From Tricharina praecox (taxonomy: Eukaryota), in the NCBI RefSeq assembly GCF_024521635.1, contig NW_026250448.1, positions 1 through 64,000 of the forward strand: a stretch of DNA of 64,000 nucleotides, given 5' to 3'. Positions 869-56,900 of the stretch are shown one piece after another. The translations under genes and the position numbers were made by a program. Below the pieces are notes generated by a model. The model had not been told where the DNA came from. It did not search any database and saw only the letters and a program-made list of their open reading frames with translations. Position 1 is the stretch's first letter. Every line of letters starts with the position of its first letter.

Positions 869-1592
869 CTACGACGGCACCACCCCCAAAGTCACCGTAA
901 CACACCCATACCCCGCGGCCGCTGTCCTCCCCGGCTCCGGTCAGCATCCACCCCTTGCCTCTCCCGTCGTCCCTACCCGCGCGTCTGCTCGGATTGACAC
1001 GTACCTTTCTTATTCCCCTTCCCCGAGTACCTAAACTCATACCTCTCCCCGCTCGCCAGCCTCACGCAAACATCGCCGCCATTCGCAAGCTTCAACAGCT
1101 TCTGCGGTGCGCCAGTGGTGGGACTGCAGCCATCAAAGACGTTGAAGAACGCGCGCGGATCGCCGCGCTGTGTCATGAAGATCTTGGTCGTGTTGTCGTA
1201 TGCGGTGTACTAGCTTCCACAGTGATCAGCCTACTGCGTGGGATAGGAGGGAAAGAACGGAATGAGGGCAGGGGTGGAGGAACCTCGCCATTGATCACCG
1301 CGCGAATTGTCACGCCGCCGTTGAACCACCACTCCGAGTTCGTCAGCACGCCGGCGACGAGCGTGTGGTTGCTCACGGCGTCGCCGGCGGGAGAGAGGTA
1401 TAGGTGGTTATCGCCGCCACCGGCTTTCCAGAAGTTGAGGCGGCGGTCGTGGAGATCTGGGTAGGAGGCGTTGTGTACTTCAATGGCGAAGGGTGTCGAG
1501 ATCGTGTTTGAAACTGGGTGGGATTTGGGGATGCATTGCGCCGTGATGGTTGGGAGGGTGAGAAGGAGGGCGGTGAGGACGGGGAAGAGCAT
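869..1592 (-). CDS. Secreted protein of unknown function (~188 aa, 2 introns)
   Basis: Signal peptide MLFPVLTALLLTLPTITA; introns 1283-1210 and 1004-922 (GT..CTGAY..AG) join three exons in frame, ending ...GYGCVTVTLGVVPS*. Confidence 0.75.
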
Positions 1593-1962
1593 ACTGGAGG
1601 TTGTGGGGATGTGGGATTGGCGGCGGTGGAGCTGTGAGGATATTCCGCACTGAAAGTGCTCGGAGGGAGGTTATATAAAGGATTGGGGTTCTAGATCGGC
1701 TGCGGTGAAAATTAGGTTTTAGGAAACGTTGCGTTTATATGCACGTTGGAGAATTTACACTCATGTTTGTATCCGCGTAGCACGAGGGCTAGAATTGTCA
1801 GGTACGAAGACTCAAGAACTGCGGTCACAAGTGGCTGTTATGGTCACACACGTACGCGATCCTCCGTTATCATTGGTAAGGTCCCAAATCGTGGTACACG
1901 CGAGGGAATACAATATGTTGAATTCCGGTTAACAGCAGTAGCTTTCATTTGTAACTTCCCGC

Positions 1963-3070
1963 TCATGTTAGACGATAAACCTTCCTAGCAACGGCACCCC
2001 ACACATCCTTCGCCTCCTTCTCGGTGAGCTTCTTTCGTGCAACCAGCCTCCCCAGAATGCCAAATGTCGCCTGCCGCCAACAGCTCCATGCGTACTGCGG
2101 GTGAGCCCCCTCCTTGCCTCCATACCCGATGTTACAGACCGGCCAGTCACTCGCCCACATCACCCTATCGGCTCCAAAGATCTCGAAGACGGCGGTTACC
2201 CAGGGAAGAACCTGTTGTTCCAGTGTTTCCGGTTCCCACATCCCGGCGGACGTATCGAGCTCGGAAAAGACGCCCGACATCTTCACTGCCACCCGCGGGA
2301 AAGCCGCGATCCGGGTGAGATGGGCCTTCCATGCGATGAATGTGGGATGCGATGTCGCCGCCTCGCTAGGAATGGTCATGTCAGGCTTGCCCATGTGATC
2401 TATCCACACACCATATCAGCATGTTCCCTCTCCCAAAGGTGCGAAGGGAATGCGCACTCAACACGATCCAGCCGCCTTTGTCGCTCGCCCCTTCGAACAC
2501 TCCCTTCAACATCCGCAGCGCTTCGTGCTTCTGCCACTCTCCGCCACGATGAAAGTCCACGCCTAGATCGAACGCCAACCCCTTCTCGAGCACCCACTTC
2601 ACTCCCTGCTCCACGTTTGCCGGCAGCATCGTACCCGCGGGCTTATCCTGGAACAGGTACCTAACTCCACACACCCGTTTCCTGTCGGACTCTGCCACCA
2701 TGGTCCACCACTTCTCCATCCCGTCTCTACCGAGCGTTACGGGCGCAAACGGTACAACAGCCAAGCAGCCCTCCAGTGCGGCCGCGAATCTGAGCTCGGC
2801 AAGCGGCTGGGAAAGACATTCCTCGGTCGCTTCGAGCGGAAGCGTGTACGCACGGTCGGTCTCGACGAAGATGAACCCTGCGATGGAAGTGCGGTCTGGG
2901 CTGGCAGCGGAGGTATCAGAGCCGTCTGTAAGGGCGGTATCGCATGCGACGGTGTATTCCGCGACGGAGTGCGGGGCGTTAAGCGAATTCGACGGGGTCA
3001 TCCATGATAGGTGCGGCAGGTCGGACGCGGTGAAGAGGTGGATGTGCGAGTCGATTATTTCGTGGGGCAT
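1963..3070 (-). CDS. LRA2: Amidohydrolase_2 family protein, L-rhamnono-1,4-lactonase-like
   Basis: IIDSHIHL, FIFVETDR, GVRYLFQDKP, NHMGKP (across intron 2457-2400), KMSG and RVMWASDWPVC motifs. Confidence 0.8.
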
Positions 3071-4519
3071 TGTGGCGGTGACGTCGTGGTGAGCGCGGAC
3101 GGTGCGGGGGGCACTGGAAGCCAGCTCGCTAAGCGTATGTCGGGAGTCGGGACCCCGGGCGTGGAAAAAGAAAGTCTCTCGGCTAAGGTGACGGGTTTTG
3201 CCAATCTTGGAACAAGGCTGCAGCGGAGAAGTCAGAGCTATGGAGTAGATGTCTTGGACGGTGATCTCCGAGAATTGTTTTTGTTCTATCACCCTTTTCA
3301 TCATGCAGTGAGGGGGCGCCTGGTGTCCCAACGCTGCTGTCGCGAGCAGACGAGTTTCGGTCGATGATCCCAACATTGATCCAGCGCCCCAGTGACCTAT
3401 CGCCGGCACACCAAATGCCCCACCCACTTCGGCTTCAGGATTCATCTGTCGTGTGTGTCCACTATTTCCGACAGCGGATTGAGTGTTCCAACCGACGAAT
3501 TCGACGACGATGAGCTTGAAGCGATAGACATCAATTGAGCCTCGGTCACTGACTGGAGAACTGCACCACCACGGGTGCTACGTCCGAGCCTCTGAAGGAG
3601 TCTCACTATCGCTTCCCCGCAAATCATCATCAATTTTATCACTCTAGGAACGCCTGTTTAGTTTTTTCAAGCGGATGTGAGCAGACGAACGAGTGAGACA
3701 AAGATGGAGATGTGATTGCTAGATACCGAACAAAGAGAGCGGACAACAGAGAGAGTATTTCAAGAGTTACATAGTAGGAAAAAACTAAGTCCCACGATAT
3801 CCTTCCGTCCCATACTATCCGTCCGTCCTACGACATCCGTCCGTCCCCACTCGGTCTATTGATGCCCAAGGACATTAAACCAGATCACCGACATTTAGCA
3901 GGCGGTACGGCGACGGCGGGGAGGAGAGTGAACTCCAGGGGAGAGCTCAGGGCTTGGCCCAGGACAACGTCGACCATGACAACCGGCATTTTTCCAATCC
4001 CGCCTTCGATCCAAATATCTTCACTGCTATTCATCGGGCCCCGGCCTTGACAGCTACGCAAACCCCGAGACGACAATTCCTTTCGTGCACCATGCGGTGT
4101 ACGCTAGACTCGGTATGTTGAGGGTAGTACCGAGTGGAGGTACCTTTTAGAGAAGAGGAGGGCTACGACGCGCCGCTACAGCGCAAAACCGACAACCCGA
4201 GCCTGTTCGGAGGCACACCGTAAAATATTGCGAGGCGAAGGGATTTAGCTTGTCATTTCTGTATGGATTTGGTGATGGAATATCTTTGTTGCAATGTTGT
4301 ATTGTAGATATCTCTATCGGCCATAACCTTCAGGTTCCATGCTGTATGAACAATCACTCAATCAATCGATCAGTGACCTATCGCCCATCTGGTCGTGTAT
4401 GTGCCACTCATCGAAGATGGATGGACTACGGACGATGCTGGGAGCTTGTCTATTTGTCGGCGGAATAGAGGTGAACGCTGGTGGACGGTGCGTGCCACCA
4501 CGTGGGTTGCGATAGAGAT

Positions 4520-4780
4520 TGTGCTCTTCAAACCATTTCGCATGCAGCCCATCTAGACTATGGCGAACCGTCGCACTCATTTCCTCCCAACTCGGGCCGG
4601 ACAGCAGGATGTGACGCCGCTTCCAACCACACAAATACGTAGGATATTGCAAGACCTGACAATCATGTATCGCTCCTCACCTCCCTGCACCGGCCCCGGA
4701 AACAGTGTCCTGCTGAACACTCTTGCTCTGCCGCCGATTTTTCACTCCCCTCCTCCTCGTCGTCCAAATCTGGCAGAGCT
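4520..4780 (+). repeat. Left arm of a diverged long inverted repeat (partner 9765-10030)
   Basis: ATTTCGCATGCA..TCTAGACTATGGCGAACCGTCGCACTC..TGCACCGGCC..AACAGT matches the reverse complement of 9765-10030; boundaries approximate. Confidence 0.7.
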
Positions 4781-5038
4781 TCCCTCCCATATCCGTCGTT
4801 CCTACAAACTCAAGGATCGCATCTCTGGACCGCTGGTCCGCGAACACGTAGTTTCGTGATTTGGCCATTGAATTATCTATCTACCCCAATCTACTTACGC
4901 CGCATTTTCAATCTCCTAGTCTTATTCGGCGTCCGCCACATGCTCCTGACCAAAGCTCCCGCACCTATTTTCTTGTTCCTCCTGGTTTTACCTTTCCCTC
5001 CGGGTCCCTCGTTCATCCATTGCGGATTTGATGCTGCT

Positions 5039-6068
5039 CTAGTGATCCTCCAACCATTCCCGCACCTTCCCCACGATGTCCTCCCTCAAATCGCGCCTTT
5101 TCAGGCCGATGTTGTGGACGGTACAGAACACCCTCAGCTTCTTGACGTTGAGGGTGTCGGGGTCAGGGTACGGGCGCTGGAGGAAAGACACAGCTGTTTT
5201 GCACATCTGATTAGCACTGACCGGAAACATGAACATGCCACTGAAGCTCAGCGAGATGTACCCGGCCTCGCCGTTGTTCTCCCGGTGGGTGGTGATGAGC
5301 TTACCAAGCAGGGCGTTGAGTGTGGCGGCTCGAATTGGTGGAATGGCGGCGGGAACGGGTGCGGCGGGAGCTGTTTTGCACATTTGATTAACATCGCAAG
5401 GATACATGAACTGGCCTATGAAGCTCGGGGCGGTGTACGTGGCCTCATTGTTGCTGTCCTGGTGAGTGTTGAATAGCTTACCTGGGGCGTTGGGTGCCAC
5501 GGTTGGAGCGGGGGCAAGAGCAGCCAGGACGTGAGCGGCCAGAGCTGTTTTGCACATCTGATTAGCACCGAACGGATACATGACCTTACCTCTGAAGCTC
5601 CGCACGATGTACGCGGCCTCGCCGTTGTTCCGTTGGTGAGTGGTGAAGAGCTTACCTGGGACGTTGGGTGCGGCCATTGGAGCGGGGTTCGGAGCATGAT
5701 CAGCCGGGACATTGTGGGCGAGTACTGCACATCTGATTAGCACTGAATGGATACATGAACTTGCCTCTGACGCTATGCACGATGTACGCGGCCTCGCAGT
5801 TGCTCGCCTGGTGGGTGGTAAAGAGCTTACCTGGGTCGTTGGGTGTGGGTGTTGGAGCCGGGGCAGGAGCATTCGGGACGGGACCGAAGAGCGGAATCCC
5901 TTCGTAGACGAGATCGGCAGGACCACCAGCTCTTGTGACGAATCTTACACATCCCGGAAGAATACGATCTGCATCTGAAGTGGGAACACCAGGTGCCGCG
6001 AGCCACGGTGCCACGATGAAGAGGTTAGTTTCTATCGAATAAAACCCCTGCGACTGATTGTTGTTCAT
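5039..6068 (-). CDS. Hypothetical protein (~196 aa): Pro/Ala-rich linker, C-terminal SAP/HeH-like helical motif, four homologous introns
   Basis: Exons 6068-5831, 5724-5656, 5544-5482, 5370-5305, 5193-5039 total 591 nt; each intron reads GTAAGC...G(C/T)TAAT...CAG; splicing resolves the apparent frameshift; C-terminus PDTLNVKKLRVFCTVHNIGLKRRDLREDIVGKV. Confidence 0.7.
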
Positions 6069-6959
6069 CTTTCGAGAATATCTAAGTAGGTTGAATCAAG
6101 GCTTTGTAGAAAACAAAAGGGGTTAAACTGTAGTATGAAGTGCTGCAGGGGGAGAAGAGGTTCTCAAGGTCGACGATGGAGAAGCATAGGAAGTGTGCTA
6201 GGGCAGGAGGAGATATCGTTCTGAAAGGTGGTGATGTAGTAGGTTTCGTTCGGCTGGTGGTTGGGGGAAGGATGGTGTGTAAAGTTGGCGAGAGGGAGGA
6301 GGTTTTCTAAACGTAGATGAAGCTTGCAGTTTGACATTCATCCTTCAAAAAGTGTTGCACATGGCATTCTTTACCTGCCACACTAGTAGTACCCAGAAAC
6401 TACAGAAATCGACAAGACTCTCCTCGTTCCAAACCGACATCGCAAGCATGTTGGCTGTGAGAGGTGTGAGGTATCACGAGAGAGAGTTGTAATGAAACTC
6501 TTCACCTAAAGCCTTTCTAGAGCATGGCTAACGGGATGGGGATCGTGGAAAATAGTGAATGTCAACTTCGTAACCTCTCACACGGTCATATTCATGCACT
6601 CGCTATTTTTGCCGTTGAGCGTATGGGGAAAGCTAAATCGCAGATTTTCGAGAAGCAGGAACTCCTGAATGTCACCTGAATAAATGTCTCGATGTCATAT
6701 GGTAGTCTTCCTATGTAAATGGCATATGGCGGCTGGGCGGGCTATGGAAAGTTAAAACTTTCATCCGCCGGTATGCGGGAGTCACATTTGTGACGGTATG
6801 AGTGGCAACTGCAGAGCGTGCGAGACGTTGCATATAGCAGGGCTTCACACATACTACAGCGACACACAGCGATGGACGGTCTGTGTGTGATGATGGCCGG
6901 GCTGTAGATACCAAAACAAAGACGTAGATGTCTGTGCACAATATGCTGACTCCTGAGCA

Positions 6960-7115
6960 ACTTATTCGATCCGAAACTGTGACGAATATCCTGCACGTTA
7001 TTCGAACAGAATCTGTATGGTATATCCTGCACACTATTCAAAGAGGAATCGTGTCGAACATCCTGCATGCTATTCGGTCGCAAAGTTGGTCGAATATTCT
7101 ACACGCTATTCGAGT
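6960..7115 (+). repeat. 36-bp-period array: 21-nt quasi-palindromic core with 15-nt variable spacers
   Basis: Cores of type GAATATCCTGCACGTTATTCG at 6984, 7020, 7056 and 7092. Confidence 0.8.
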
Positions 7116-7680
7116 AGAAAATGTGTTGTGAGCAGCCGAAACCAAGCTGGATCACGGATGCAACATTTCAGAGAAACGGATCACCGTGAGCACGATAATT
7201 TGAGAATTTGCTGTCCGAGCTGAGTGGAGATCGGTTCTAAACGATCATCGGTGATAGTGGAACCGTCATTTAATGGATGTGGATGAACTACTGAACGTCG
7301 GTCCTGGGAAGACTGGAGTACGAGGAGTTGAAATCAGAAATTGAATTTCTGGGAGGGTATCCACGTCCTTCAAAAGACCCACACCCTCCTACCCCTCGCA
7401 ACCGTCTGCGATCTTTAACCCGACTCCTCCTCTTGCTACCACATCAAAAGCAGACATCGATCCACCTTGTTTCCACCAAGATATCTTCCGGAATCATACA
7501 CAATTACTTACATCACCCGGTCATCTCTTTGACTACGATTCAAAACACCCTTCCTACATCCTCTTTCCCTGTATCGTCGCCTCGACCGCGCATCCAAACA
7601 CCAGCACAAGCGAAGCCGCATCTCTCTCGGAAACTATCCTACCTCGACCAAGCGACCAACAATCCAAGATCCAGGGAAGA

Positions 7681-9095
7681 ATGCCAGTCATGGATAGCGG
7701 CAGCGGTAACGGAAGTGGAACGCACGATCAGGAACACCATCCTGCTCCCGGAAACCATCAGCATCCGAGGAATCCTAACGGAGGCAACGTCACCGGAGCC
7801 GACTACGGAATGTCCACATACGCCCGACTAAGCGGTCGCCGAGTTCTCACGGGACGAGAGCGGTTGAGGCAGATGGAGCTGAACGACTACGGTTTCATTG
7901 TGCGGAGTGACGATTCCCGCCGACTCGCTGTCGAATACTGGAGGAGACAGGAAGCACGCCGTCTCGCTCGCGAGGAACACCAGAGGAGAGAGGAAGCCTA
8001 CCATCTCGCTCACGTACAGATGCCGACGACAGCCGCACTAATTCATCCTACTGTCGAGCACGTGAGTGAAGTCGACGCGCTACGTCTAAGTATCCTGCAC
8101 ATGGATAGAACCGTAGCTACCCATGTAGCTCCCGGAAACCAGCTGCAAGCAAACCAGACAGCGCACCAACCGGTCAGTAAAGTACCTGTTCAATAGACCC
8201 GACTTACCACATATTAATTAATAGACGTCTCTTGCAGCCCACCAACAACGCGGCGAACGTTCGACTTTGCAAACATGGCCACGCCATCGGAGTCGAGCAC
8301 TGTACGAACAGAACTTACCGACAGAGCGGGCGTCCAACCGTGACGGAACAGAGTCTGTTACGACACAAGCAAATGGTCGAACACATATTTACTGAGTGGA
8401 CGGAGGACGTACGTCGTCTCGGTGTCGAGTTAACGGTCGAGGGAGCGGTAGCACTGGGTGCTATGCGTGAACGCCAGCGACAGCAGCAAGGATATGAGAG
8501 ATCGTTCTACACGTTCGATGAAATCACCATCCAGACCCCGGAATATTTCTGCCTGTCTTCCCAACAAGGTCACCAGACCGAAACCGAGCAACGTACGCAA
8601 AAGAAATCACCTCCAGCCCGCAGTCGTCACTTCGTCAATCCACGCAGTCTGCAGCGTCAAGCTGAACTAGCCGACTACGGTTACCTTCTGCGCAAAGCGC
8701 ACGCACGCCGTCTCGCGATGCAACACCTGGCCAATCCAGACGCCAGTCAGACAGCTTATCGGATGAGAAAAGAGCTGCGTACGCGCCATTGGGAATATAT
8801 GGCCTCGCAGAAGACCAACTACGCATGCAAGACGGTTCTCTGGAGGGAGGAAACAGCATCTTGCGCTGAGCCCGCCCCTTACCTACAACCCCACTGCCTA
8901 AAGAGAACCCAAGACATCTTGCGTCGCACCTTTCCCTGGATCGAGATACCGGGGGCTAGGGATCCGTGTGTCAATTGTCTGGCGGAGATGGCCATGCGCA
9001 TCAAGAATCAAGAAGAGACCTGGGTGGATGAAGTCTCGGAGCGCTTCGCGCACATGATGAGCAACGAATGGCGTTTCGAGGATATTCAGTGGTAG
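7681..9095 (+). CDS. Hypothetical protein (~449 aa, 1 intron) with an internally duplicated motif
   Basis: Intron 8173-8237 (GTCAGT..CAG) joins two ORFs in frame; motif pair RQMELNDYGFIVRSDDSRRLA / RQAELADYGYLLRKAHARRLA. Confidence 0.6.
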
Positions 9096-16919: not shown

Positions 16920-19900
16920 GTAGAACACTGCTGCTTCGTTCCCTCGGTACGAGGCTATGTGCAGAGGCATCTGTCCCCATTTATCGACGATCGAAATGTC
17001 GGCTCCCCGGTCGATGAGCATTCCGGCAACGTCGAGGTCCCCGAAAAAAGAATGGCTGATGAAGTAGTTGATCTATGCGGGCCGTCTTTGGTAAGTCGGA
17101 ATCGAATATGGCGACCAACTTCTGCGCTAACCCATACACGCAGATGGTGAAAAGTACATCGCAACTAGTTTTCTGCAGAGCTCTCGATCGCTGCTAGGAA
17201 ATGTCTCTTGGGTAGTTGACGTGGATACACAAAACGTGATAGCGGTGCCATCGCTGATGGCTATTCCCCGATTCGAATATATCCCAGAGAAGTGTAAAGA
17301 TATGACTGCTGCTGCTTGCATCGTGACAACGAGCGATATGCCACGGCTAGAAGACTGCCGAGTATAACAACAGGTGTCGGTCGTCATACTGCGCTTCCTT
17401 GGTGATTTGTGTCATAGTCGTCCCAAGAGCTGGATTTGCAGAGTAATGAAAGGCAGACTTTCGAGATTTCCGCATGAGAATCAACCGTGGGCAGTTGGGT
17501 CTCCAAGTACTCATCCACGGAAAGATGTGCAAACCAGAAAACATTCAGACCTTCGTCCCGAACGACCAGGCTCTGGCAAACCTTCAATAAGGCATTCGCC
17601 TGCACCGCGGCATGCGAGAATTCTCCCGAGTCGTCAATCTCGACCGTGATTGCATCAAGCAAGGTCTCAGATCGAACTGGTTCGTATGAATATTGAATCC
17701 ATCAGAATTCGTTCAGTGCTAGTCGAGCAGCGCTGCCTTTCTGGGACAGAATGCGCTTGTATATTTCTCCGTAGGCCTCCGTCAAGGTGGTAGGAAGGGA
17801 CGTCAGACTACGCCTTACATCCCTTGGTGTGACCATGTCGCAGAAAAACTCGGTGATGTCAAGCGCGGCAAGCTGAAATCTGTCGACGAATCAGTAACAG
17901 TCATCAGTATCTGGAGTCGTCGTGGCCCGCTTACATTCCCTTTGATCGTTTACAAAAGACCTCGCGTATTTCAGCTTTGCGCTCACTGTCAACTTTGCCA
18001 TCAAGCAGTAGCCTGTCGTCGATAATGCTTTGAACTTTCGATTCGACGAACCGCTTGATGTCGGTGACGTTGTCGTCAGGTTGCAAGTCAATTCTGGGAA
18101 ACATCTCAAACTGCCGGACGATGTCGGTGTCCATTCCAGTCGTCGCAAAGATCTTGACTAAGTTCTTTGATCGCTCTACGACGTGCTTCAGCGACGTCAA
18201 CAACTGCAACGGGATTCCGTATTCGACTTCGTCCAAAGCATCAATGCAGATCGTGGCCTGGGGATGGATATCAGTGAGTTGAACAAGGAGCTCCAGGCTT
18301 TCCATAAAGCTCAGTCGCGAAGACGTTTGTCCTTGCTGTTCTCGCTTATGGTAGATATCGACGATCGGCGTCGAAAGTTGGTTTTTTTCCGTCGGAACAA
18401 ACTGATGGATAAGCGTGTTCAGGATACTCTCGGGTTGTCGGCAATTTTCTTCGGCTCGATGGCAGTGAAAGTACCCTAATTTCTCTGACGTCGAACCCTG
18501 CAAAGAGTCGATGACTGTTGGTGCAAGGTATGTTTTGCCGGCTCCAGCTAGACGGATTGATAAGACGAGAGTACTTCCTGATGAAGAGGCACACGGAAAC
18601 TTACGAATCGCCCCGTAGAAGCAACAACATCGAAACATCCGATGATCTCCAATCACAGTACTCCTCCCTTTAAAAGAGCCACTCGCCAGTACCTTTATGG
18701 CGCCCTTCGCTGATACGCTTATGGTGACTTAGGTATGGAATCGTGGATATCCATTCAAGTATATCAGAACTCCCGGACCCTAGTAAAGTGTATCAGCATC
18801 GGTAGCACATACCCGGAAAGCAAACGTGGGCCCCTCCGGCCGCCTTGTCCCAGCTTGATTATCATTCCGCCTTGCCCTTTCTCGCAGTTCACTAGCCTGT
18901 ATTCAAGCTGGGAAGTATTGCCAGTATTCGTACATACCATCATGATTTCCCCTCGCGGCGCTTTGCAAACGTGCTTCGACGATACCCGGAGCGTTCCGGA
19001 CACACTTCGATAGTCTGTCGCGTACTGTGGTGTATCAATGATCGCAGCCGTCGCTGAATTTGACCATGTTCGAGTGGTCGACATCGATCCCGAGCTGCAT
19101 GTGGATGGCATTGGCAGGGAAACAGAAGGTTGCGCACTCCTGCGTAACGACCCGCATCATCGCGCCACCTTTTGTCCAGCGTCCGGTGAGGCTGCTAACA
19201 ACCACGCCTTGAGTGGCTCTGCGTTCATAGCACGACGTGATCTGACAGCGCTTGAGCTTGACGCACTGGAAGAAAACTCGATAGTCCCGCAGTAGGATGT
19301 CCGAGCCTTGTCGTACGTCGATAATGAAGTACTCGTTCTTCTGGTTCTTCACGAAGGTCCTCTAATTGTCGATGGGGAGTCCTCAGCAGGGGACTCCGAA
19401 TAAAAAGAGAGCAGCACACGAATCCAGGATGGCTAGACCATTGTCATACTTTTTGTTTCATTGAGATGCATCCACGAGTGCCTGTAGAGTGTAAGGATCA
19501 ATGACGCGCAAGTTGCAACAGAGGCGAGATGCTGCCTAACTACGTGTTTGATGACCAGACCGCCGAGACTATGGCCTATGAAGATGACCGAACGGCGCCG
19601 CTCCTGTGTAGATCTATTAGCGGTAGCTCGCAGCAAATCGCATACATCTTGCGCCCACATTTTCTGCATTACGTTCGCCGGCCAGACTGTTGAGAAGTGT
19701 TCTCGCATGGTGTTGAATGGAAGGTGTATTCGTGCCCTCCATCAGAGCTGAGTTGTAAAAGGGAGAACTCTCACTTGATAGCCTTGGGCATCAAGATCGG
19801 GCGGCAGAAAGTCCCGTAACCACATGTGAGGTTGTGTACGAGATTTCCAGGATCCATATGCGTGGCCAGCGGGGCTGGTTACGGCGACAATGCTAGACGC

Positions 19901-24300: not shown

Positions 24301-24654
24301 GTCGTCGTCATTGTCAATTTCAGCTCGGCGAGATTCGACTGTGCGGCGGTTGGATGTGTTGTTGAGCATGGCACGGAGGCCGGCGAAGTAACTTGTCGGA
24401 GACATTCTTCTGAGTTGGGAGGTTTCGTCAGCGGGTTGTTCGTTTGCTAAGTTCGGGTTGGGGAATGGGTAACGTACTCTTGTGGTGGATGTGCTTACTT
24501 ACTATATGATGTTGAAAAACATGAGCAGAGATGAATTTCGATGGTGGTGACGAAGGATTGACCGCTAATTTCGGTCGTGTAAATACGATTTCTAGAGGGT
24601 AACTGGTGATCGTCTGTAGAGGAACGGAAGGGGTAGTGGTAAGGCGGTAGTGAA

Positions 24655-31237: not shown

Positions 31238-32680
31238 ATGCTTTCCCGACAGATCCTTCTCAGGGGCTTCAAGCCTTCCGCTGCGTTTGCCCGCAGGGGA
31301 CTCGCTACCGTTGTCAACACCGCCCACCAGGCGACTGGCGCCAGCACCCCCAAGACCATCAAGGATCGTGCTACCTTCACCATCAGGGTATGTCACCGTC
31401 GAGCACAAGGGCCTGTGCTATGTGGAACTAACCGTGTCTAGGGTGGACCCGTCTACCACGGCACCTCCTTCGGCGCCCGCCAGACCATCTCGGGCGAAGC
31501 CGTCTTCACCACCTCGCTCGTCGGCTACCCCGAGTCGATGACCGACCCGTCGTACCGCGGCCAGATCCTCGTCTTCACCCAGCCGCTGATCGGCAACTAC
31601 GGCGTCCCGTCGGACGTCCGCGACGACGCCGGCCTCCTCAAGTACTTTGAGTCCCCGCACATCCAGGCGGCCGGCATCGTCGTCGCCGACCACGCCGAGA
31701 AGTACTCGCACTGGACCGCGATCGAGTCTCTCGGCGACTGGTGCGCGCGCGAGGGGATCCCCGCCATCTCGGGCGTCGACACGCGCTCGATCGTCACGTT
31801 CCTCCGCGAACAGGGCTCGTCGCTCGCCCGCATCACCATCGGCGAGGAGTACGACGCCGACCAGGACGAGGCCTTCGTCGACCCCGAGCAGATCAACTTG
31901 GTGGCCAAGGTCAGCACCAAGCAGCCGTTCCACGTATCGTCGCCCGGCGACCTTCACGTCGCCGTCATCGACTGCGGCGTCAAGGAGAACATCCTGCGTT
32001 CCCTCGTCGCCCGCGGCGCCTCCGTCACCGTCTTCCCCTGGGACTACCCGATCCACAAGGTCGCCCACCACTTCGACGGCGTGTTCATTTCCAACGGCCC
32101 CGGCGACCCGACTCACTGCTCTCCCACCGTGCACCACCTGCGCAAGCTCATGGACACGTACTCCGGCCCGATCATGGGCATCTGCCTCGGGCACCAACTT
32201 CTCGCGCTCGCGGCCGGCGCCAAGACCGTAAAGCTGAAGTACGGCAACCGCGCCCACAACATCCCGGCGCTCGACCTGACCACGGGGCGCTGCCACATCA
32301 CGTCGCAGAACCACGGGTACGCGGTCGACATGAAGACGGTCCCTGCCGACTTCCAGGAGTACTTTGTCAACCTCAACGACGGGAGCAACGAGGGCATGAT
32401 CCACCGCACCCGCCCGATCATGAGCACGCAGTTTCATCCCGAGGCGAAGGGCGGACCGCTCGACTCCGCGTTCCTCTTTGATGCCTACATGGACAACTGT
32501 GAGACGTACAAGAGGGAGCAGGCGGGGATTATTCCGGCGAGGGTTGGAAGACCGAATCCTCTGCTCGTCGATATGCTCCCCAAGGAACGCGTCGGTGTCA
32601 AGCCGGAACATAAGATTGAGCCGTTTGCGGCCGCGGAGAAGGTCGTTGCTAGGGAGGCGGAGGTTGCGGCCGCGGCTTAG
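31238..32680 (+). CDS. CPA1: Carbamoyl-phosphate synthase, arginine-specific small (glutaminase) subunit, mitochondrial
   Basis: Basic presequence; intron 31388-31441; [51 protein letters not shown]. Confidence 0.98.
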
Positions 32681-34455: not shown

Positions 34456-35536
34456 ATGCTTTGCGAACTGGGGATCAGGGAGGGGGAGGGGGGAGGGGGA
34501 TTGTGGGGGGAGGGCGTTCTTGCTTTTGCTTTTGCTTTTTGCTTGTTGTTTTGTTTTTGCTGGCGGGGATGGGCGGGGATGGGATGGAGATGGGGATGGA
34601 GATGTCCATTGGAAATTACTCGACAGACTTGCAGTTCTTCCGACTTCGTTGCTTCTGTGCTTCTGCCGTCGATGTAGATGGTGGGGAATACTATACCTAC
34701 CTAGGGATACTAGGAATGCATCCGTTTATCTGAATACATACACGCAATACACGCAATACACGCGATTGGAACTTGAACTCGCACTCGACGATCCTATTGC
34801 TTTGTAGAGTCCTCGGCGAGCTGCAATCCTCATACTCTTCGTCCTCGAGGTGCGTCCACCTATAACCGGAGACCTCTCCCAGGCTCCCAGCAATCCCTAG
34901 CAATTCCCAAACGAAAAATCACAGAGTATCGAGTATGGAGTACCGTATCCACGCCACCCACGGGCCACGGCAGATCACGATTCACGAACATACGCACGAA
35001 GTAACGACAGTACAATCAATACACTGGGGCGGAATATGCCCGGACTTCCAGCGCACTCGGCACCTCTCGAGTCTCGACGGAAACCCACAGAAACCCACGG
35101 AAAGCCCGAATGCTCAACGGATACCCGCGAGTGCGGAGTGCGGAGTGCTCGAACTTGGTCGCTTCGGGCTGGGGCTCGGGCTCGGGCTCGCGAGTCGTGA
35201 TGCTGGGAATCTGGGATATCGCGATTGGAGATTCTCGATCGGCTCGGTCACCGGTGGCGTGCGGCGTAAGCGAGTACCTATACAAAGACTGAAGATGAAG
35301 GATGAAGGATGAAGGGTGAAGGCCGAGGATCTCCGTCGCCACTGCTGGCAATGGACACTGGAGTGGGCACTGGGTTTCACTCCACTTGCAGCTGTTGTCC
35401 GGACATGTCACGATCACTATCACACAGTCTATCACTCGCATCATCTCATTTTTATGACGGCAACGGAAAATTGTTTTTTTTGGTGCGCTACAAGTACAAC
35501 TCCCCCGAAAGGAGTCTGTGCAGTCTGCTGCTGCCA

Positions 35537-36812
35537 TTACGACAGGTAGCTCATATCTGCCCAGGTGGTGTAAGTGCTTCCTAGCACGTTTGCGGCGGTT
35601 TCCGGTGCTGTGAGCTGCGATGAGAACGAGGCCTGGGGGTGTCAGTACTAGTCTGCACGGGAAATGGGGAATGGGAGATGGGAGATAGTGGGGATAGTGG
35701 GGATAGTGGGGACGTACCCGGGTGCCTTGCGAACCCGTGCCGGTGTTCAGATACTCGCGGTAGTACACGTTGTCGGTGCGGGGATCGCCGCTGTTCCACT
35801 GCACCCAGCCGGCGGAGTTGACGACGGCGCTCATGGAGGTGCGCTGGAAGACGACTGCAGATGTGTTAGCTGCTTCCAGCACGGCAGAGTTGGGGGGCTG
35901 CAGACCTCTAGAGTAGTTCCTCCACGGGCGGCCGAGGTACGTAGAGCCGGCGGCGATCGTGACACCCGGCGCGGCCTGGATGTCGGAGTCGGTGATGACG
36001 TAGTAGCTCACGTTGCTCTCGCTATCCCTTCCGTTGGCGGTGATGTAACCCGTTCCCTTGATGCGGATGTCGGCCTTATAGAACCAAGCGCGCGCGCGCT
36101 GTCCAAAGATGAAGTCGGTGGCGCCGTCGATGTAGCAGCGTGCGTAGATCTGGTTGCCCTCGTTCGCGAGAATCGTGTCCTGGTACCCGATGAACTGCAC
36201 GCCGTAGTAGCCCTGCTGCGTGGCCTGCGCGGAGACGGCGAGCGCCTGGCTCCCGTTGCCCCGTGTGTTCTTGAGGTTGATGTTGTACACCTTTAGCCCG
36301 ACGTTGTGAGCGCGAAGTGTCGCTGTTAGGTCGTTGCTGGAGACGTCGTCCTGCGAGAGCCCCTGCGTGATAGTCACGGTGTTGGACGTGTATGTGCTCG
36401 TGTCCGTGGTGTAGCCGTAGACGGTGAGCTGTGCGGTGCGCGCGGCGATGTAGACTTGCTCGTTGTAGGTTCCCTAGAACCGGTCAGTATCTGCCGCGGG
36501 GATTCAAGGATGGTGGATGCACACCTGGTAGATGAAGATGCACTGAGTCCCGGTTGCAGTGGTGCTCAGCGAGTTGACGGCTGCTTGGAACTGTTCTCAT
36601 CAGCCACCGCACTTTAACCCGCTTCGACACGCAGCACATACCGTGGAGTACTCCCCAGTTCCAGCTGACTGCCGCACGACTGTGCATCCGGTGGGAGGCG
36701 AGGTCCTTCCAGCTCTGCGCATGTACTGTTTCTTGCCTGGATTAGGCGCAGCGGAGACGACGCCCAGCAGCACAGTGGCCGCCACGAATACCGAACTGAG
36801 GTGGAAAAACAT
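35537..36812 (-). CDS. Secreted pectin methylesterase (CE8), 4 introns
   Basis: Signal peptide; GTYNEQV, QALA, YQDT, GATDFIFG and YLGRPW motifs; last exon ends ...WADMSYLS*. Confidence 0.95.
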
Positions 36813-45194: not shown

Positions 45195-48100
45195 ATGCAG
45201 ACAGACTTCGAAGAGGTTTGGGACCCACGTACGATGTTGGGCAGATGTCAATACACCCTCAGCACATTCGTCGAGAAAAAAAAACCCGGATTGCGCGATT
45301 GTTTCTTTCCGCATGAGAATTTCGGCGAGTATGTGTCCAGAGGCGCCCGTATGGTCGTCGAGCTACAGCTGCGAGGCTGTCCCCTGGAGCTTGCCCACGA
45401 GTTTGCCGTTCTGGTCCTGTACGATCTAGTCATTCTGGTTGGTAAGTGAGGCTGTTGCCCTCTCCCCTAGGAAGACGGACTAACCGGTCCCCCAAATCGA
45501 TCAGACGACAGTCATTCATTGCTAGAAGAATTCGACGGTAATCAAACATCGACGTTGCGGACAGTGTTGAGGGCGGTCTCAGAAATCTACGAGCTGGCAC
45601 GCGAAGAGGGAATTCTGTCCGTCCGATATCTCAATTCTCGACAGGGTCAGAAAAACGTCACCACGGAGAAGGTAGATAAGATAGTCGCCAATATTCGGTA
45701 CCACGGTCTCAGCACGGTCGGCACACAACTGCAGCAAAAGGTCTTGGAGCCATTCGTGCAGCGGAAAACGATGACCAGGCCTTTACTGGCAATGGTCATA
45801 ACCGACGGCAATGTAAGCTCATCGTGCCCCACGCTGTGATTGGGTGCTGACCTAGTTCCAAGATTGAGGGTGAGAGGAGGGGGACTCTAGAGAATAACAT
45901 CCTCAACTGCCTGGCCAGGCTACAAACCGATCCGGAAAAGACAGAGCATGGTCCGTGTATTAGATCCCACAACCCCGAACTCGATTCCTGACCTCTTCAG
46001 CTGTCGCCTTCATGTTTGCAAGAATCGGCGAGAACCGAGACGGCGAGGCCTTTTTGGCGACGCTGGATGACCATCAACAAATCGGCAGGTGGATTGATAA
46101 TATACCCGGTGGGTTGATATGCATCCGTTTGGCGAATTCTACTGACTTCTGGATGAAGTGGACTGCCACCTAGAAGATATCGCTGGTAGTGGTCCATCGC
46201 ACTGGTTGGTGGTATGTCTCCTGTTCCTCCACCCCCTCCGAGCTCCCCGTGCCGTCCAGCTAAACAAACATTACTACTAGCTCCGAAGGCTTCTTCTAGG
46301 AGCTGTGCTTCCAGAGGTACATCTCCGTATTATGCTTGAAGCGCAGAAACTTCATCTGACGGTGACCAGATTGACCATCAGGACGATGACCAACCGCGCT
46401 TTGAGGACGATGAAGACGACGACGAGGGAGGGAATAAAATGAGCCCATATGGGGAAGGTAACCACTGTGACGACGTCGAAGACGACGATAGCCGGTCGTT
46501 GAGCACACGCCGTGAAGAGGAGGATCTCCCACACGTCCTTCCGACTAAACATCACACCTCGAGCATCAAAGAGGAGGACAAATATCGCCATCCACCACTG
46601 CGCTCAGCAAGCCCAGCACATACCGCTCCTAGCGATGTTTCGCCATCACACGGTACCGCCGCAGACCATCATGCCTGCGATGCGACGGGGCCGTCCACGG
46701 GGCCACCGGAAGTGGAGAACAATCCTCCCCAAGGGCTAGCAACCCACCACCCAAACGCGCCTCCGAGGGAAATCAACGAAATCTCCCGAAGCCCAAAGGA
46801 TTGCTGTCTATTGCCCCCCAGGGATTTACCAGATGCCCGCATCAGGCATCTCGATATCCGACTAGCACCGCGACTAGACAACTTTCACGTGGCGTGGCTA
46901 GAAAGAGAGAAAAATCGCTGGGTAGAGGAGGAGGGCATCACGGAGCAGCACAGGGACAATCTGATGACGAGCGTTGGATTCCGTCAGTATTCAGCTTTCG
47001 CAACCTGTCATATCCCTAGACCTACTGACAAAGACTGCAATGTACGGTAGTCTTCTCCGTCCCGGGCATGGAAAGTCGCGAATGTACCAGTAGCAAGCGA
47101 GACATACAGGATGTCTACCTTGTCCCCATCGGTGCCGATTTTCCCTCCCTGGTCGTGGAGTGCGGTGGGTTGCCGGACAGGCAGGAAATGATTGCCGACA
47201 TGCGAGACTGGTTCAGAAAGGGCCATGGCAAGGTGGTGAAAGTTATCCTCATGATTTGGATCATGCTGCCGGAGGCCATCATGGGGGGCCGTATCGAGGC
47301 CTATGACTTCGACCACGTGCAGGACCGAGAGATCCTTGTTCGGGAGTGGGTACGTGCGAATTCGCGAAAGGGTGCGGGAGGCCTGGAGGATTCAATTCGT
47401 GCTGACCATTTTTCCGCTAGGTTTTTCTACCGGAGAACGATCGGTCGCGGTCGCAGTCGTTACAGATGACTCTGGGCGACCTATACGGAAACAGAGCGAA
47501 GGAGCTGTCGGAAGCCGAGAGAGGCATCATAGTTTCGATATTCAAGCACGACTTTTGCGACGAGGCTGCCAGGGCGATCGGGTCGTCGGGTCTTCATATC
47601 CCGGACTGCAACGATGCGCTCTGGCAATTCGAGCGCGGCGGACGGAGCAGTATTGAAACCACCGGTGACGAAGGACGAGGAGGAGGAGGACATGTCAATT
47701 CACACAACATCACTGGAAGTCACAATACGAGCTACGACTACTCGCGCAACCAATTGAGCAACGATTACTCCAGCAGCAGTAACAGCACCACTACCAACTA
47801 CAGGATCAGGATCATGAAAGCTGGTGCCAGTAGACTCGCCCCCAAGATCGGAGTTTCTTTTCCGCGCAGTGGCGCCAGGAACATTGCCAGATCGCGAGAC
47901 GCCAATCGACAAGACGCCATTAGAAATCCTAGTACGGACCTCGTCCCGCCGCAAGATGTTAGTTCACTCGCCGCCAATGCGAACCGCAGGATGAGCGTCG
48001 ACACCTTGGAAGCGGAAGATTCACCGGCCGTCGCGCCTCCGGAGAGGGACAGGGAAACACTGGGGAGCGTGAACGACCTACCTCCGCACATCCATGAAAT

Positions 48101-50290: not shown

Positions 50291-52830
50291 ATGACCATGG
50301 CCGTGGAGCAACGCGCTGCAAGGCTCAAAGAATACGCGGCGCAGTACAAACCCGGTCTGCTCACGTGCTTTCCGGGCAGCTTCGCTGCGTACGCGCCCAG
50401 AGCCGTGACGATGATCGAGAAGCTCGTCAAACGCAGATGTCCCCCGGAGATTGCCGAACAGCTTGCGGTCTTGGTGCTTTTCGATCTGGTGCTTTTGCTT
50501 GGTACGTACCTAGTTTGTATCGCCGAACTGGCCACGCCGAGAAGAATAGGGCTAAGCTCGCCTTTCATCAGACGACAGTAGCTCGATGGACGCCGAGAAT
50601 GGTGGCAAACGTGAAGAGACGCTATTCAGAGTGTTGGGAACGGTCGCGGATATCTACCAGCTGGCCCGCGAGGAGGGAATTGTGGCCATCCGGTTATTTA
50701 ATACCCGCGAGGGGTGGTCGGATGTCTCTCGGGATAAGGTTGAGGAGCTATACGCCGGCATTCATTACTACGGTGTTAGCATGATCGGCACACAGCTGCA
50801 AGAAAAGATCCTGGAACCGTTCGTCGAGAACAAAAGGATGGAGAAGCCTCTATTGACCATGGTCATCAGCGACGGCAAAGTAAGCTCATCATAGTCCACC
50901 CTGGGACTGTGCTAACCACAGTTCAAGATCGAGGGCGAGGGAAAGGGCCTTCTGAAGAGAACCATATACAACTGCCTCCTGAGGCTCCAAGCCGGTCACG
51001 AGACAACGGAAGACGGTCGGTACAACGATTCTGATACCTGAGACTGATATCTGACTGTTTCAGCCGTCGCTTTCTACTTCGCACGGATTGGAGGAGATGC
51101 AGGTGCCAAGCAGATTATAGAGCTGGAAAACGACGATGCAATGAGATCTTGGGTTAACTGTCTACCGGGTAGGTTCGAATGGGCTTGGCTTCGGGGAGGT
51201 TTTGCTGACCTGTCGATCGAGTGGATGCGCGGCTGGAAGATATCGGTGGCGGTGAGCTAGCTCATTGGACTGTGGTAAGTATCTCTTCCTTCCCCGGGTA
51301 CTTGGTGTTATGACTCATGAAGCAAATAATTTCTACTACTAGGTCCAAAAGCTTATGCTTGGAGCCCTATATTCGTCTGTCAATCCCGACGGTAACCCGG
51401 AAGCTCTGTCGTCTCCTAGGTTATTGCCAATCATGCCGGACGGCGGCTCTACAGCCATCGCTGATTTTCGGTATCGCTCGACCGGAAACTCGAAACTGGT
51501 CCAGCAATTGCACATCGCTGCAAGGAAAGGCGATTCTATTGCTGTTGCGCTCTACATAGAAAAGCTAGGAGTCGACAAGGACGCCGAGGATGATGAGGGT
51601 ATGACTGCGCTGCATCATGCCGCGAGTGCTGACAGAGTTGATACCGTCCTATGGTTGGTGATCTCTGGAGCAAATCTGGAAGCTAGGTCTACGCGTGGCG
51701 CATCTCCGCTGCATATTGCTGCTTCAAATGGTCACGTGGACACAGTTCAAAATCTGCTTAGCCGCGGGGCGGACATGGAGGCGACGAACGATAAAGGCGT
51801 AACTCCACTACACAGCGCGGCACGGAAGGACCATGCGGACACTGCTCGGAATCTCCTCGACCACGGCGCGAATATTGAAGCCAAGGACAGTAGAAATCTC
51901 TCTCCGCTAAATAAAGCTGCAGCCCGTGGCAATGCAAACACTGCACGGCTTCTGCTCGACCGCGGCGCTGACATCGAATCGAAGAACGATGAAAACTCAT
52001 CTCCATTGCACTTCGCTGCAGCGCGTGGCCATGTCGTTATTGTACGGCTTCTGCTCGACTACGGCGCGGATATCGAATCGAAGAACTATGAAAACTCATC
52101 TCCATTGCACTTCGCTGCAGCGCGTGGCCATGTCGTTATTGTACGGCTTCTACTCGACTACGGCGCGGACATCGAATCGAAGAACTATGAAAACTCATCT
52201 CCATTGCACTTCGCTGCAGCGCGTGGCCATGTCGTTATTGTACGGCTTCTGCTCGACTACGGCGCGGACATCGAGGCCGAGAATAATGACAGTGCTTCTC
52301 CGCTGCTGCTTGCTGCATGGGAAGGGCAAGCGGAAACTACAGATAATCTTCTCAAGTGGAACGCAAAAATCGATGCCATGACGAATCGTAATGCGTCAGC
52401 ATTACACTGGGCTGCATCACGTGGCCATGTCCAGATTGTACGCATTCTGCTAGACCGCGGCGCCGACATCGACGCCGTGTCAATGAACGGCTGGACTGCG
52501 CTACACGCAGCTGCGCGGGACGGCCATATCGATACCCTGGAGATTTTGCTTAGCCACGCCGCGGATATCGAGGCGACGAACGACGAAGGCTTGACTCCAC
52601 TACACAACGCTGCACGGAAGGGCCATGTAGATATTGTGCGGAATCTGCTTAACCGCGGCGCAAAGATCGAGGCCAAAACCAATGGTGGCGCATCTGCACT
52701 ACACTGGGCAGCATCGAAAGGTCATGTCGACGCCGTACGCCTTCTGCTAGAGCGCGGTGCGCATATCCGTGGCTTGGCCAATGCAAGCCGCTCCATATCG
52801 CTGCGCACCACCAGCGCCGACAACAGATGA
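50291..52830 (+). CDS. vWA-ankyrin repeat protein (5 introns, 13 in-frame ANK repeats)
   Basis: MIDAS DDSSS and VISDG; exons splice into the 51355 ORF; repeated xPLHxAA..G..LL..GADI units. Confidence 0.88.
51964..52260 (+). repeat. Three near-identical 99-bp ankyrin-coding units
   Basis: Units start at 51964, 52063 and 52162 and differ by only a few bases. Confidence 0.95.
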
Positions 52831-53925: not shown

Positions 53926-56900
53926 TCAAGATCTCTCTCCCTCTCGTCGTTTTCCTCCTCCTTGTTTTTCCGACTTATGAAACACCAGAGGGGAGGGTGG
54001 CTTTTCTTTAATGCTTCTGGTAAATCTTCGCATGCTCGCTCGTCGCTCAACAATGACTGGTTTCAGATTGACGACCGATATGTTTGAGATCTCGGACAGA
54101 CTCAGCCCCGACAGCTGGGACCACCCGTCACCCTTCCTAGCGCTACTATCAGAGGAGGACATCGACCCGCTCCGCTTCACTTTTCTGTACACGCGAGTGT
54201 CCAGAAGAGTCCGCTCAAAGGGAACGAGATAGCTATCAGTTGTCGGAAGGATCGAACTCATGGAACGGATCGAGTGTATATCGTTCTTTCCCTCGGATGA
54301 TGCTCGGCTATTACGCTTGAGGGACGCCTCGCTAAACACACCTTCTCCTTGACTGCCGGCGCGGGTAAACCCCTGCTCGGACAACCACTTTTCCCACAGT
54401 TCCCTCTGTAATGAATATAAGGGCTCTCCAGCGCCGCCACCCTCGTTGCCCTCATTACCGCCGTGGGGAAGGCTGGGTAGTGTTGTCGAGACAGTCGCCA
54501 TGATGTCGTCCAAGGTTTCAATGATCGGTATGAAATACGCCCATGGCGAGGAGGTGGATGTTGCGTGGAGATATCCCAACAACTCCGAGGTAGTCGAGTC
54601 CACTGCCCAGGCACCTGACATTCCACGGGCTAATGACAGCAGTTGCCGATGTCAGCAATTGTTCATTTCAAAAGCTGGATTACATGAGCGCATTTACCAA
54701 GTTCACGACTCGTCATAACCATGAACACCAATCCGAGGCCAGGCTGGTTCCGAAGGGACACGAGGCTAGGAACACCGGATGCAGTACCATGGCAGTATAC
54801 CGAGCCGTTCATGATAATCTTTACACTTTTGCTGGCAAGGTGCCCCGTGGAAATGATGGGATGGGATGCGTCCGAGCCTCGACTGTCCGTTTGCGCGTCA
54901 TGGAACACATTCGGAGGGTGAAAGTGGGCACCTACCATCTGCGGCGGCGAAATGAGTGCCCAGTCCATGATATATGAAGTGGCATCACGGTGGTCCACGC
55001 CGGTGTTTGCAGATCTGCTCACACGATTACCCGACGCGCAATGCACGGCGGTCATTTTATGGTCGTCGCGAACAGAAATGCGGATGTCCGATAATTCGAT
55101 ATGGTCCTCCGTGACGCGCGGTTTCAATCTCCGATCACCGTCGTCGTCGTCGTCGTCGTCGTCCGAGATTCGTGTTGAAGAACTAGTGCTGCTTGTCCTA
55201 TCGCTTGACTGATCGCTCGTCTCGCCCGAATCGCTGTCTTCCGTTTCTTCATCCAACACATGCGAAACCGTAAGTCCAAAATACTGTCCATCAATCTCAA
55301 TGTAGCCTCCGAGCAATGCCGTGCCCAGAGTCCTCTTACCACGATATGCCGATATCGGAATCCCACTCCCACTCCGATACATGCCGTTGCCAAATAAATT
55401 GCTCCCCCCCGGCGCGGCGGCATAGCTCACTCCTCCCTCCAGGAACTTCACACTGAACTTTCTTTGGTCAATGCAATTCGTCTTTGCAATAAGCCGCCTC
55501 ATATCTCGTACGCTCCTGCACGTTATCAACACGGTTGGTCGGTCCTCGCACATAACGAGTTCGACGCAGAAAAATGCTTTTTTTTTGTACAACGATTTGT
55601 TGATCAGCTGCTGGATATTGGGTAGTACGACTGTGTTGAATTCTAGATGTATCTTCGGATCGCATTCAACCATGGAAGTATCGCCAGAAGATGTGCCATC
55701 GACGTGCCATATAGGTATGGGAACTGTCAAGACTGGTGGCGGGCTCTGTATTTGAGTAGACGGTTGAATCGCCGGAGTAGGTAGAATAGCTGACGGAGAA
55801 GGAGGCAGAGGCAAAGCGGCAGGGTCAATCGCGGAAGTAGGAATAATAGTTGTTTCACTAGGAGCAACAATTGCCGGAGCAGGAAGAATAACCGCCACAG
55901 TAGGAGGACCAACCACTGGAGGAGGAGTAATATTCGCCGGAGTAGAAGGCAGAGTCGGGGCGGCGAGGTCAATCGCCGGAATGGGAAGAATAGCCGCCGG
56001 AATGGGAAGAATAGCCGCCGGAGTAAGAGAGATAGCCTCAGAAGGCGGAGTAATAGTCGCCGGAGTAGAAGGAAGAGTCGGGGCGATAGGGTCAATCGCG
56101 GGAGTAGGAAGAATAGCTGTCTCAGAAGGAGCAACAATTGCTGCAGCAGGAAGAATACCCGCTGGATCAGGACGACGGGCCTCAGAAGGCGGAGTAATAA
56201 TCGTCGGAGTAACAGACACAGTCGGGGCGGCAGGGTCAATCGCCCAAGTGGGAAGAATAGCTGTCTCGATAGGAGCAACAGTCGCCGGAGTAAGAATAAC
56301 AGCCGCTTCAGTAAGAGTATCAATCGTCGGAGTAGGGGAATCGATCGCCGGAGGAGTAGATATACAACGCAACGTTTGAACGAAACGCAGCAATTCCTTA
56401 CTACAACCGCCTTCCCCAGCTTTGTGTAGGGGTAGGAGCAGCCACCGGAGAAGGAGTAACAGTCGCCAAAGTAGGTATAGCTGTCTGGGGAGGAACAACA
56501 GTCGCAGAAGCAGGAGAAACAAGCTTAGAAGGCGGAGTAATAGTCGGCGGAGTAGGACTAACAATCTCCTGAGTAGGAGAAGGAATTGCCGGAGTAGAAG
56601 GTATAGCGGTAGCCGGTGGAGCAAGAGAATCAATCGTCGGGCTGGATACTGGCACTGTCGGGCTGGATACTGGCACTGTCAGGATGGATACCGGCGCCGG
56701 TAGTGCTGCGCAAGCGGTTGATGAAGGGGCAAGTGTTGGAATGCTGTCATCCAAGACCGGCGAGGAAACCGGCGCATCTTTCCCGGTAAACAAAGCTCCG
56801 AGAAAACGCAGCTTACGTCCCCCGCCCTCCGCCGGAGTTGGAGGATCCGTCGATGCGTTGCTACTCTGTCTTTGCCCGGGCCTCCGTGAACGGCTCCGGA

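Follow-up and report, generated by a model that had tools for sequence, protein, structure and literature searches.

The minus-strand gene at positions 6068-5039 (1030 nt) of the window, by which we mean the whole 64-kb stretch of DNA that was analyzed, carries four homologous segments in its repeat region (5194-5830), and the question raised by this locus is whether these segments, hereafter the units, are introns or a translated peptide repeat. Tandem Repeats Finder returned a 174-nt repeat in 3.9 copies at 5192-5880 (74% matches; score 656), and the period of the exon-plus-unit modules is regular at 174-177 nt. A sequence-only reading of this stretch had described the units as introns of 106, 111, 111, and 111 nt, all in phase 1 and each running from a donor GTAAGC through a branch site G(C/T)TAAT to an acceptor CAG, masquerading as a protein repeat. 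Every element of that observation is correct. On the minus strand, GTAAGC occurs at 5830, 5655, 5481, and 5304, that is, in 4/4 units, and is directly preceded by CAG in three of them (TTG in unit 4); G[CT]TAAT occurs at 5741, 5566, 5392, and 5215; and in all four units a CAG acceptor follows 12-17 nt past the branch. The consensus of fungal U2-type introns is a CTRAY branch followed by a YAG acceptor, and the branch motif reads CTAAT in units 1, 2, and 4 and TTAAT in unit 3. The lengths and the phase were likewise as described, with Pro/Ala exons of 69, 63, and 66 nt spacing the units, and the signals sit exactly at the borders between Pro/Ala exon and unit in 4/4 copies. In pairwise comparison the units are 75-87% identical, unit 3 being the most diverged (75-78% to the others). 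The features are collected in Table 1.

Table 1. Features of the repeat-bearing gene and of its surroundings (positions in the window).
Feature	Position	Strand	Description
Exon 1	5831..6068	-	ATG 6068; unique N-terminal part; identical to residues 1-79 of P0001
Exon 1, last ~56 nt	within 5831..6068	-	Pro/Ala; homologous to exons 2-4
Unit/intron 1	5725..5830	-	106 nt; CAG|GTAAGC...GCTAAT...CAG; phase 1; removed in deposited model
Exon 2	5656..5724	-	69 nt; Pro/Ala-rich
Unit/intron 2	5545..5655	-	111 nt; CAG|GTAAGC...GCTAAT...CAG; phase 1; 3n; stop-free
Alternative 45-nt intron in unit 2	5545..5589	-	GTAAGG donor; unit 2's own branch and acceptor
Exon 3	5482..5544	-	63 nt; Pro/Ala-rich
Unit/intron 3	5371..5481	-	111 nt; CAG|GTAAGC...GTTAAT (weaker branch)...CAG; translated in deposited model
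Exon 4	5305..5370	-	66 nt; Pro/Ala-rich; 3-nt insertion adjoining donor
Unit/intron 4	5194..5304	-	111 nt; TTG|GTAAGC...GCTAAT...CAG; translated in deposited model
Exon 5	5039..5193	-	Unique C-terminal 51 codons and stop (5039-5041); GC3 0.84; codon-usage margin 21-24
Carbamoyl-phosphate synthase small chain	31442-32677	+	
Pectinesterase	35019-36473	-	
Amidohydrolase	1966-2415	-	
DUF7909 ORF	1176-1670	-	

Joining the five exons (6068-5831, 5724-5656, 5544-5482, 5370-5305, and 5193-5039) yields 591 nt in one frame (196 codons plus a stop), in agreement with the earlier claim that splicing out the units removes the frameshift, and all differences in exon length are multiples of 3. When copy 1 is read through in the frame of the ATG at 6068, a stop is reached at 5700-5702. 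The source of this frameshift is copy 1 itself, which is 5 nt shorter than the other copies next to the acceptor; since the 5-nt deletion shifts the frame, removal of copy 1 is needed for the downstream frame. Copies 2-4 are multiples of 3 in length and stop-free in the exon frame, as the sequence-only reading had also held, and lie within a 301-codon open frame; their removal is frame-neutral, and that of copy 1 is obligatory if there is to be a single frame. Although the copies have diverged by 13-25%, a continuous 227-codon frame (5722-5042) runs through them without a stop. When we simulated the copies without selection, the chance of having stayed stop-free since the duplication was 0.23 for all four copies and 0.31 for copies 2-4. 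Because chance survival is of this order, the open frames argue for neither side, and selection for open frames was rejected as an argument either way.

If all units were removed, the spliced product would have a small unique domain at either end and a Pro/Ala linker of ~65 residues between them. Exons 1 and 5 gave clear coding scores, the coding signal of exon 5 being the strongest in the gene. That the downstream frame and the strongly coding exon 5 have remained intact despite the copy 1 frameshift would make sense if copy 1 is spliced, and an intron at copy 1, which carries canonical signals, does not appear implausible on its face.

To see how often such signals occur together elsewhere, we scanned the window for complete splice-signal sets, defined as GTAAG[CT], CTRAY, and YAG at suitable distance and spanning 40-130 nt overall. 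Three sets were found in the 1030-nt gene, copy 3 falling outside the pattern only because its branch reads TTAAT, vs. none in the window's long ORFs, 14.5 kb in total (0 in 7143 nt of Pfam-supported ORFs; 0 in 7365 nt of other long ORFs). Thirteen other complete sets among those listed in the window were either ORF-joining probable introns or lay in short-ORF, weak-coding stretches, and none was inside a long ORF. The GTAAGC donor is also used in the probable introns at 17880-17934, 24410-24498, 45813-45862, and 50880-50927. Comparing the units column by column, we observed variation in 1/12 of the signal columns vs. 36/94 of the other columns (one-sided p = 0.035, for four copies that descend from one ancestor, such that this statistic and the periodicity statistics given below each rest on about one independent event).

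These observations bear first on the best-surviving alternative, in which a 37-residue repeat, joined by Pro/Ala linkers, is translated and its codons (GGT AAG CT. and GCT AAT CAG) happen to spell out the splice-like signals. The 5-nt deletion in copy 1 would then have left the gene broken or N-terminally truncated, or only copy 1 would be spliced, and the deposited introns would be a predictor's way of bypassing the frameshift. Such a repeat is expected to have the coding imprint described below, units of 3n length, and an open frame free of indels in copies 2-4, and over the continuous 227-codon frame a sense coding model indeed wins, the best antisense model trailing it by 28.9 log units. 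A by-product of codons does not, however, explain why equally complete signals are absent from the long ORFs, why the signals fall exactly at the module borders in every copy and are better conserved than the remainder, or why the frame downstream of the copy 1 frameshift is intact. We therefore consider a translated repeat unlikely.

The sole protein relative, a hypothetical protein of 292 residues from the burn-site mushroom Lyophyllum atratum (FPV67DRAFT_1682615; P0001), was the 1 match among 4360 candidates of a word-indexed protein search. Translation of exons 6068-5831, 5724-5590, and 5544-5042 returns its exact sequence; it is the gene's own model. In it, copy 1 is spliced whole, in line with the sequence-only reading, 45 nt are cut from copy 2, and copies 3 and 4 are translated. 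The translation of copies 3 and 4 is as expected for a translated repeat, and together with that of most of copy 2 it counts against introns in these places. The donor of the 45-nt cut is a GTAAGG that lies in frame, 45 nt before the common acceptor, and is unique to copy 2; in unit 2, two donors would thus compete for one acceptor (5545-5589). Since homologous sequence is handled in three different ways, the deposited model must be wrong in part, and nothing in it appears to need transcript support.

Searches beyond this model were negative. Using phmmer against 1.84 billion representatives, we found nothing besides the gene's own model; at E ≤ 10 no stretch of the gene matched a Pfam family, and the ESM Atlas gave no usable match for the protein. 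For a translated repeat, a peptide with no relative in a collection of this size and no Pfam family is unexpected. A protein-pattern scan of metagenomes produced 102 pattern matches, of which 0 were confirmed, and a metagenome scan with a 20-nt motif from the 3' end of the unit produced one match, on an AT-rich contig (GC 0.37) having only 21-42 nt in common with the gene, which we take as chance. By these searches the gene is a lineage-restricted orphan. Its C-terminal helix may resemble a SAP-type motif, for which Pfam gives no support. AlphaFold2, run on 5722-5042 as a single sequence, was uninformative (mean pLDDT 32.6; no residue at 70 or above).

We then examined the substitutions among the copies. 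The sequence-only reading had named codon-level purifying selection as the finding that would speak against introns, and no such selection emerged: in the units, 10 of 41 single-change codons were synonymous vs. a share of 0.23 expected under neutrality (P = 5e-6 if omega were 0.2; an alternative count gave 9/35, the difference arising from random tie-breaking in the consensus). Variable columns numbered 10/15/12 at codon positions 1/2/3, and pairwise dN/dS among the units ranged from 0.36 to 1.56. The missing synonymous excess, seen both in this count and in the spread of the variable columns, weighs against a translated repeat. The exon parts, although coding under any of the readings, were near-neutral as well (10/25 synonymous vs. 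0.32 expected), so the neutral pattern does not single the units out as non-coding. The number of differences per site per copy was 0.11 in the units vs. 0.23 in the exon parts. Since the units differ half as much as the exon parts but show no codon-level constraint, whatever keeps them alike must act on the nucleotides and not on the encoded protein.

A second alternative is that the gene is a dead or never-functional orphan ORF, unexpressed or untranslated, and that its regularities are leftovers. Such an ORF would have no codon-level constraint in the repeat, and none is detectable in its exon or its unit parts; it would have neither relatives nor domains, and the only relative here is the deposited model itself, with no domain found; and the pLDDT of 32.6 is in line with it. 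A dead sequence is, on the other hand, hard to reconcile with a 227-codon frame that is open across such diverged copies, with exon lengths that differ only by multiples of 3, with the clear coding scores of exons 1 and 5, and with splice signals conserved above background. Accordingly, this explanation is improbable in our view.

Next, we asked what the units look like as sequence. GC by codon position in the exon frame is 0.42/0.42/0.72 in the units vs. 0.60/0.47/0.69 in the window's Pfam-supported ORFs. A permutation test of GC3, which takes the best of three phases, gave p = 0.0066, 0.027, 0.027, and 0.0008 for copies 1-4, respectively, and p = 0.0001 for their majority consensus, in which 29 of 35 third positions are G or C. 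Codon usage favored the exon frame by 7.9-12.1 log units per unit; for true 111-nt coding chunks the median margin was 9.8 and the right frame was best in 60/63. Margins as large as those observed were reached by 10-102 of 3000 dinucleotide shuffles, and the non-ORF null for coding potential comprised 44 chunks only, too few for use. By comparison, 15 probable ordinary introns of the window, hand-picked as canonical and ORF-joining from candidate lists and without annotation or RNA confirmation, were flat in GC (0.55/0.54/0.50) and 48-89 nt long, the units being about twice that length; naive intron scans gave too much noise for a catalogue of introns, and only these hand-picked candidates were used. 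Judged by their composition, the units are not ordinary introns merely resembling a peptide repeat, because they carry an imprint of coding sequence in GC and codon usage, unlike the flat probable introns. Having a composition like that of other introns is a feature of U2-type introns that the units lack (GC periodic; 106-111 vs. 48-89 nt).

This result qualifies the earlier interpretation, which is partly supported: the introns it proposed do have their splice signals, and "masquerading" is too strong a word for sequence with a real coding imprint in the exon frame. Taken literally, that interpretation amounts to constitutive introns of the ordinary kind that were never coding and were duplicated along with the exon, and whose periodicity, 3n length, and open frame are coincidental. 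The splice signals, the homology of the exons, and the neutral substitutions are all as such introns would have them. The third-position GC excess of the consensus, the codon-usage margin like that of true coding chunks, and the flat, shorter probable introns of the window are not, and introns that are 3n and stop-free are counter-selected in eukaryotes (Jaillon et al., 2008, cited in PMC4484396). We hold it to be very unlikely that the units are introns of this kind.

The exon sequences that precede the units, the final ~56 nt of exon 1 among them, can all be aligned to each other, which bears on how the copies arose. Because the adjoining exon parts are homologous, the module would have multiplied as exon plus intron by tandem duplication rather than by insertion of an introner, and tandem duplication of the exon-plus-unit module is the supported origin as far as the 64-kb window can tell. 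This was the origin favored by the sequence-only reading, which had kept an introner-like element as its alternative. Four insertions of such an element, mutually similar and longer than the window's usual introns though the units are, can be dismissed almost entirely, given the homologous flanking exon parts, the regular period, the coding-like composition of the units, the lack of another copy in the 64-kb window by blastn (next match at most 31 nt, E at least 0.36), and predicted folds that were not more stable than those of 200 shuffles each (z = +0.86, -0.74, +1.17, and -0.74). An intronic RNA gene (snoRNA or similar) was rejected on the last ground as well, and also on Rfam, which matched neither strand at E ≤ 10.

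The opposite strand holds an ORF at 4643-5476 (277 codons), antisense to the 3' half of the gene, with only sub-threshold Pfam noise. Over its full length it scored slightly better as sense than as antisense of coding sequence; in the repeat (5195-5473) the minus strand wins. A plus-strand gene was rejected as the source of the repeat, antisense-of-coding beating plus-strand coding there by 10.8 log units.

Thus, two signals of similar strength oppose each other in the units: a splice set that is absent from genuine exons, and a coding imprint that is absent from ordinary introns. A coding-derived unit that the spliceosome can remove fits both, the complete splice set as well as the coding imprint. 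We put the probability at about 50% that the units are splice-competent introns derived from coding sequence, exitron-like or intronized, and multiplied in tandem with the linker exon. Several observations are uncomfortable for this reading. Copies 3 and 4 and the greater part of copy 2 are translated in the deposited model, the 3n, stop-free, and indel-free state of three copies is also expected of a translated repeat, the units are about twice as long as the window's probable introns, and the branch of copy 3 is weaker (TTAAT). Splicing of the units in the cell, and the frequency at which it would take place, are predictions made from sequence.

Under this reading of coding-derived, spliceable units, each 174-177-nt module would consist of a 63-69-nt Pro/Ala exon and a 106-111-nt segment recognizable as a short U2-type intron. 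The segments would once have been, or may still partly be, coding in the exon frame, making them exitron-like or intronized exon sequence, and unequal crossing-over or replication slippage would have multiplied them four-fold together with the exon. Copy 1 would later have lost 5 nt, after which splicing would be obligatory for translation of the C-terminal domain, while copies 2-4 could be removed or retained without breaking the frame. The splice signals would predate the copy 1 deletion since they are common to all four copies.

A bolder version of this scenario is that an exon-to-intron conversion was caught midway and then multiplied, a splice-carrying coding module having become an exitron and then four copies with their linker exon. 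The locus would then work as a combinatorial switch, in which copy 1 is obligatory, copies 2-4 are optional, and copy 2 has two donors, to give up to a dozen isoforms with 0-3 copies of the 37-residue insert between fixed end domains. We offer this version tentatively and would rather doubt it than rely on it, placing it a little below the translated repeat discussed above.

The surroundings of the gene contain other repeats and several recognizable genes (Table 1). A 36-nt tandem repeat (4.6 copies, 65% matches) lies ~0.9 kb upstream of the gene start at 6963-7126, within a short ORF of the plus strand (6928-7131), and an 18-nt tandem repeat (3.3 copies) lies downstream of the gene at 3789-3847, in open frames on both strands. 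Further away, at 17934-18728 on the minus strand and 51343-52827 on the plus strand, there are NACHT/NPHP3_N and long ankyrin-repeat ORFs, NLR-like genes of a kind typical of fungi. The long ORFs (178-671 codons) at 7295-9095 on the plus strand and at 54666-56678 on the minus strand matched no Pfam family at E ≤ 0.01.

How spliceosomal introns come into being has long been debated, with few clear examples of recent date. If the units are spliced, two proposed routes, intronization of coding sequence and tandem duplication, would be acting together in one young gene, with the coding ancestry still legible in the intron sequence, and copy 1, locked by its 5-nt deletion, would illustrate the passage from an optional exitron to a fixed intron. 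If they are not, what is left is an orphan repeat of an ordinary, fast-evolving kind that has suffered one frameshift. The three-way handling of homologous repeats in the deposited model is a warning for automated annotation.

Finally, we compared the locus with known systems. In tandem exon duplication, an exon is copied together with its neighboring intron. The present gene is alike in the homology of its modules over exon and intron alike, in its regular period, in its symmetric (3n) exons, and in having one intron phase; it differs in that here conservation is higher in the intron part than in the exon part, and the intron part bears a coding imprint. A related model explains intron gain by tandem duplication of an exon segment containing AGGT (Rogers model; PMC3265369, PMC4974935). 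As described there, it shares with our locus a tandem duplication within a coding region and an intron made of coding-derived sequence, but in the model the intron is one whole duplicated unit with both splice sites supplied by AGGT, whereas here it takes up 111 of 174 nt. We rejected the AGGT model because of this mismatch between intron (111 nt) and duplicated unit (174 nt), and because the acceptors read CAG|CT or CAG|TA, not GT.

Fungal introner-like elements are reported to occur in hundreds of copies, to be longer than regular introns, and to form stable structures (PMC3609843). The units likewise closely resemble each other and exceed regular introns in length; the elements of that report lie in unrelated genes and have stable structures, in contrast to units that are local, in tandem, flanked by homologous exons, and without a stable fold. 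A KEX2-processed repeat protein or dikaritin-type RiPP precursor is characterized by a signal peptide at the N terminus and by dibasic sites on both sides of every repeated core (PMC9769878). It was rejected on the dibasic sites: the units are flanked by Pro-Gly and Thr-Ala, and there is no KR, RR, or KK at their borders. Copy 1 recalls the idea that exon sequence may be intronized once a mutation has disrupted its frame (Catania and Lynch, 2008; Irimia et al., 2008; both cited in PMC4484396), in that the frameshift caused by the 5-nt deletion would be neutralized if the segment is spliced out. Our case differs in that the signals, common to all four copies, are older than the deletion.

The closest relatives in kind are exitrons, exonic introns described in Arabidopsis and human (Marquez et al., 2015; PMC4484396). 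Some differences from the exitrons of that description are evident: they are from Arabidopsis and human, and the present locus is fungal; they show a prevalence of synonymous substitutions, and the units show a neutral share; their splice sites are weaker, and the donor here is near-consensus; and they are alternatively spliced, whereas the units are candidates known from sequence. Four homologous tandem copies within one gene, as seen here, are not among the exitron features in the passages of PMC4484396 cited here. Canonical signals inside an open coding frame without a stop, by which exitrons are recognized, are found in units 2-4, copy 1 being out of frame with what follows. The likeness lies in the absence of stop codons, a length divisible by 3 (in copies 2-4), and an exon-like composition, and as in the exitrons described there, removal of such a unit would drop an internal peptide and leave the frame unchanged (PMC4484396).
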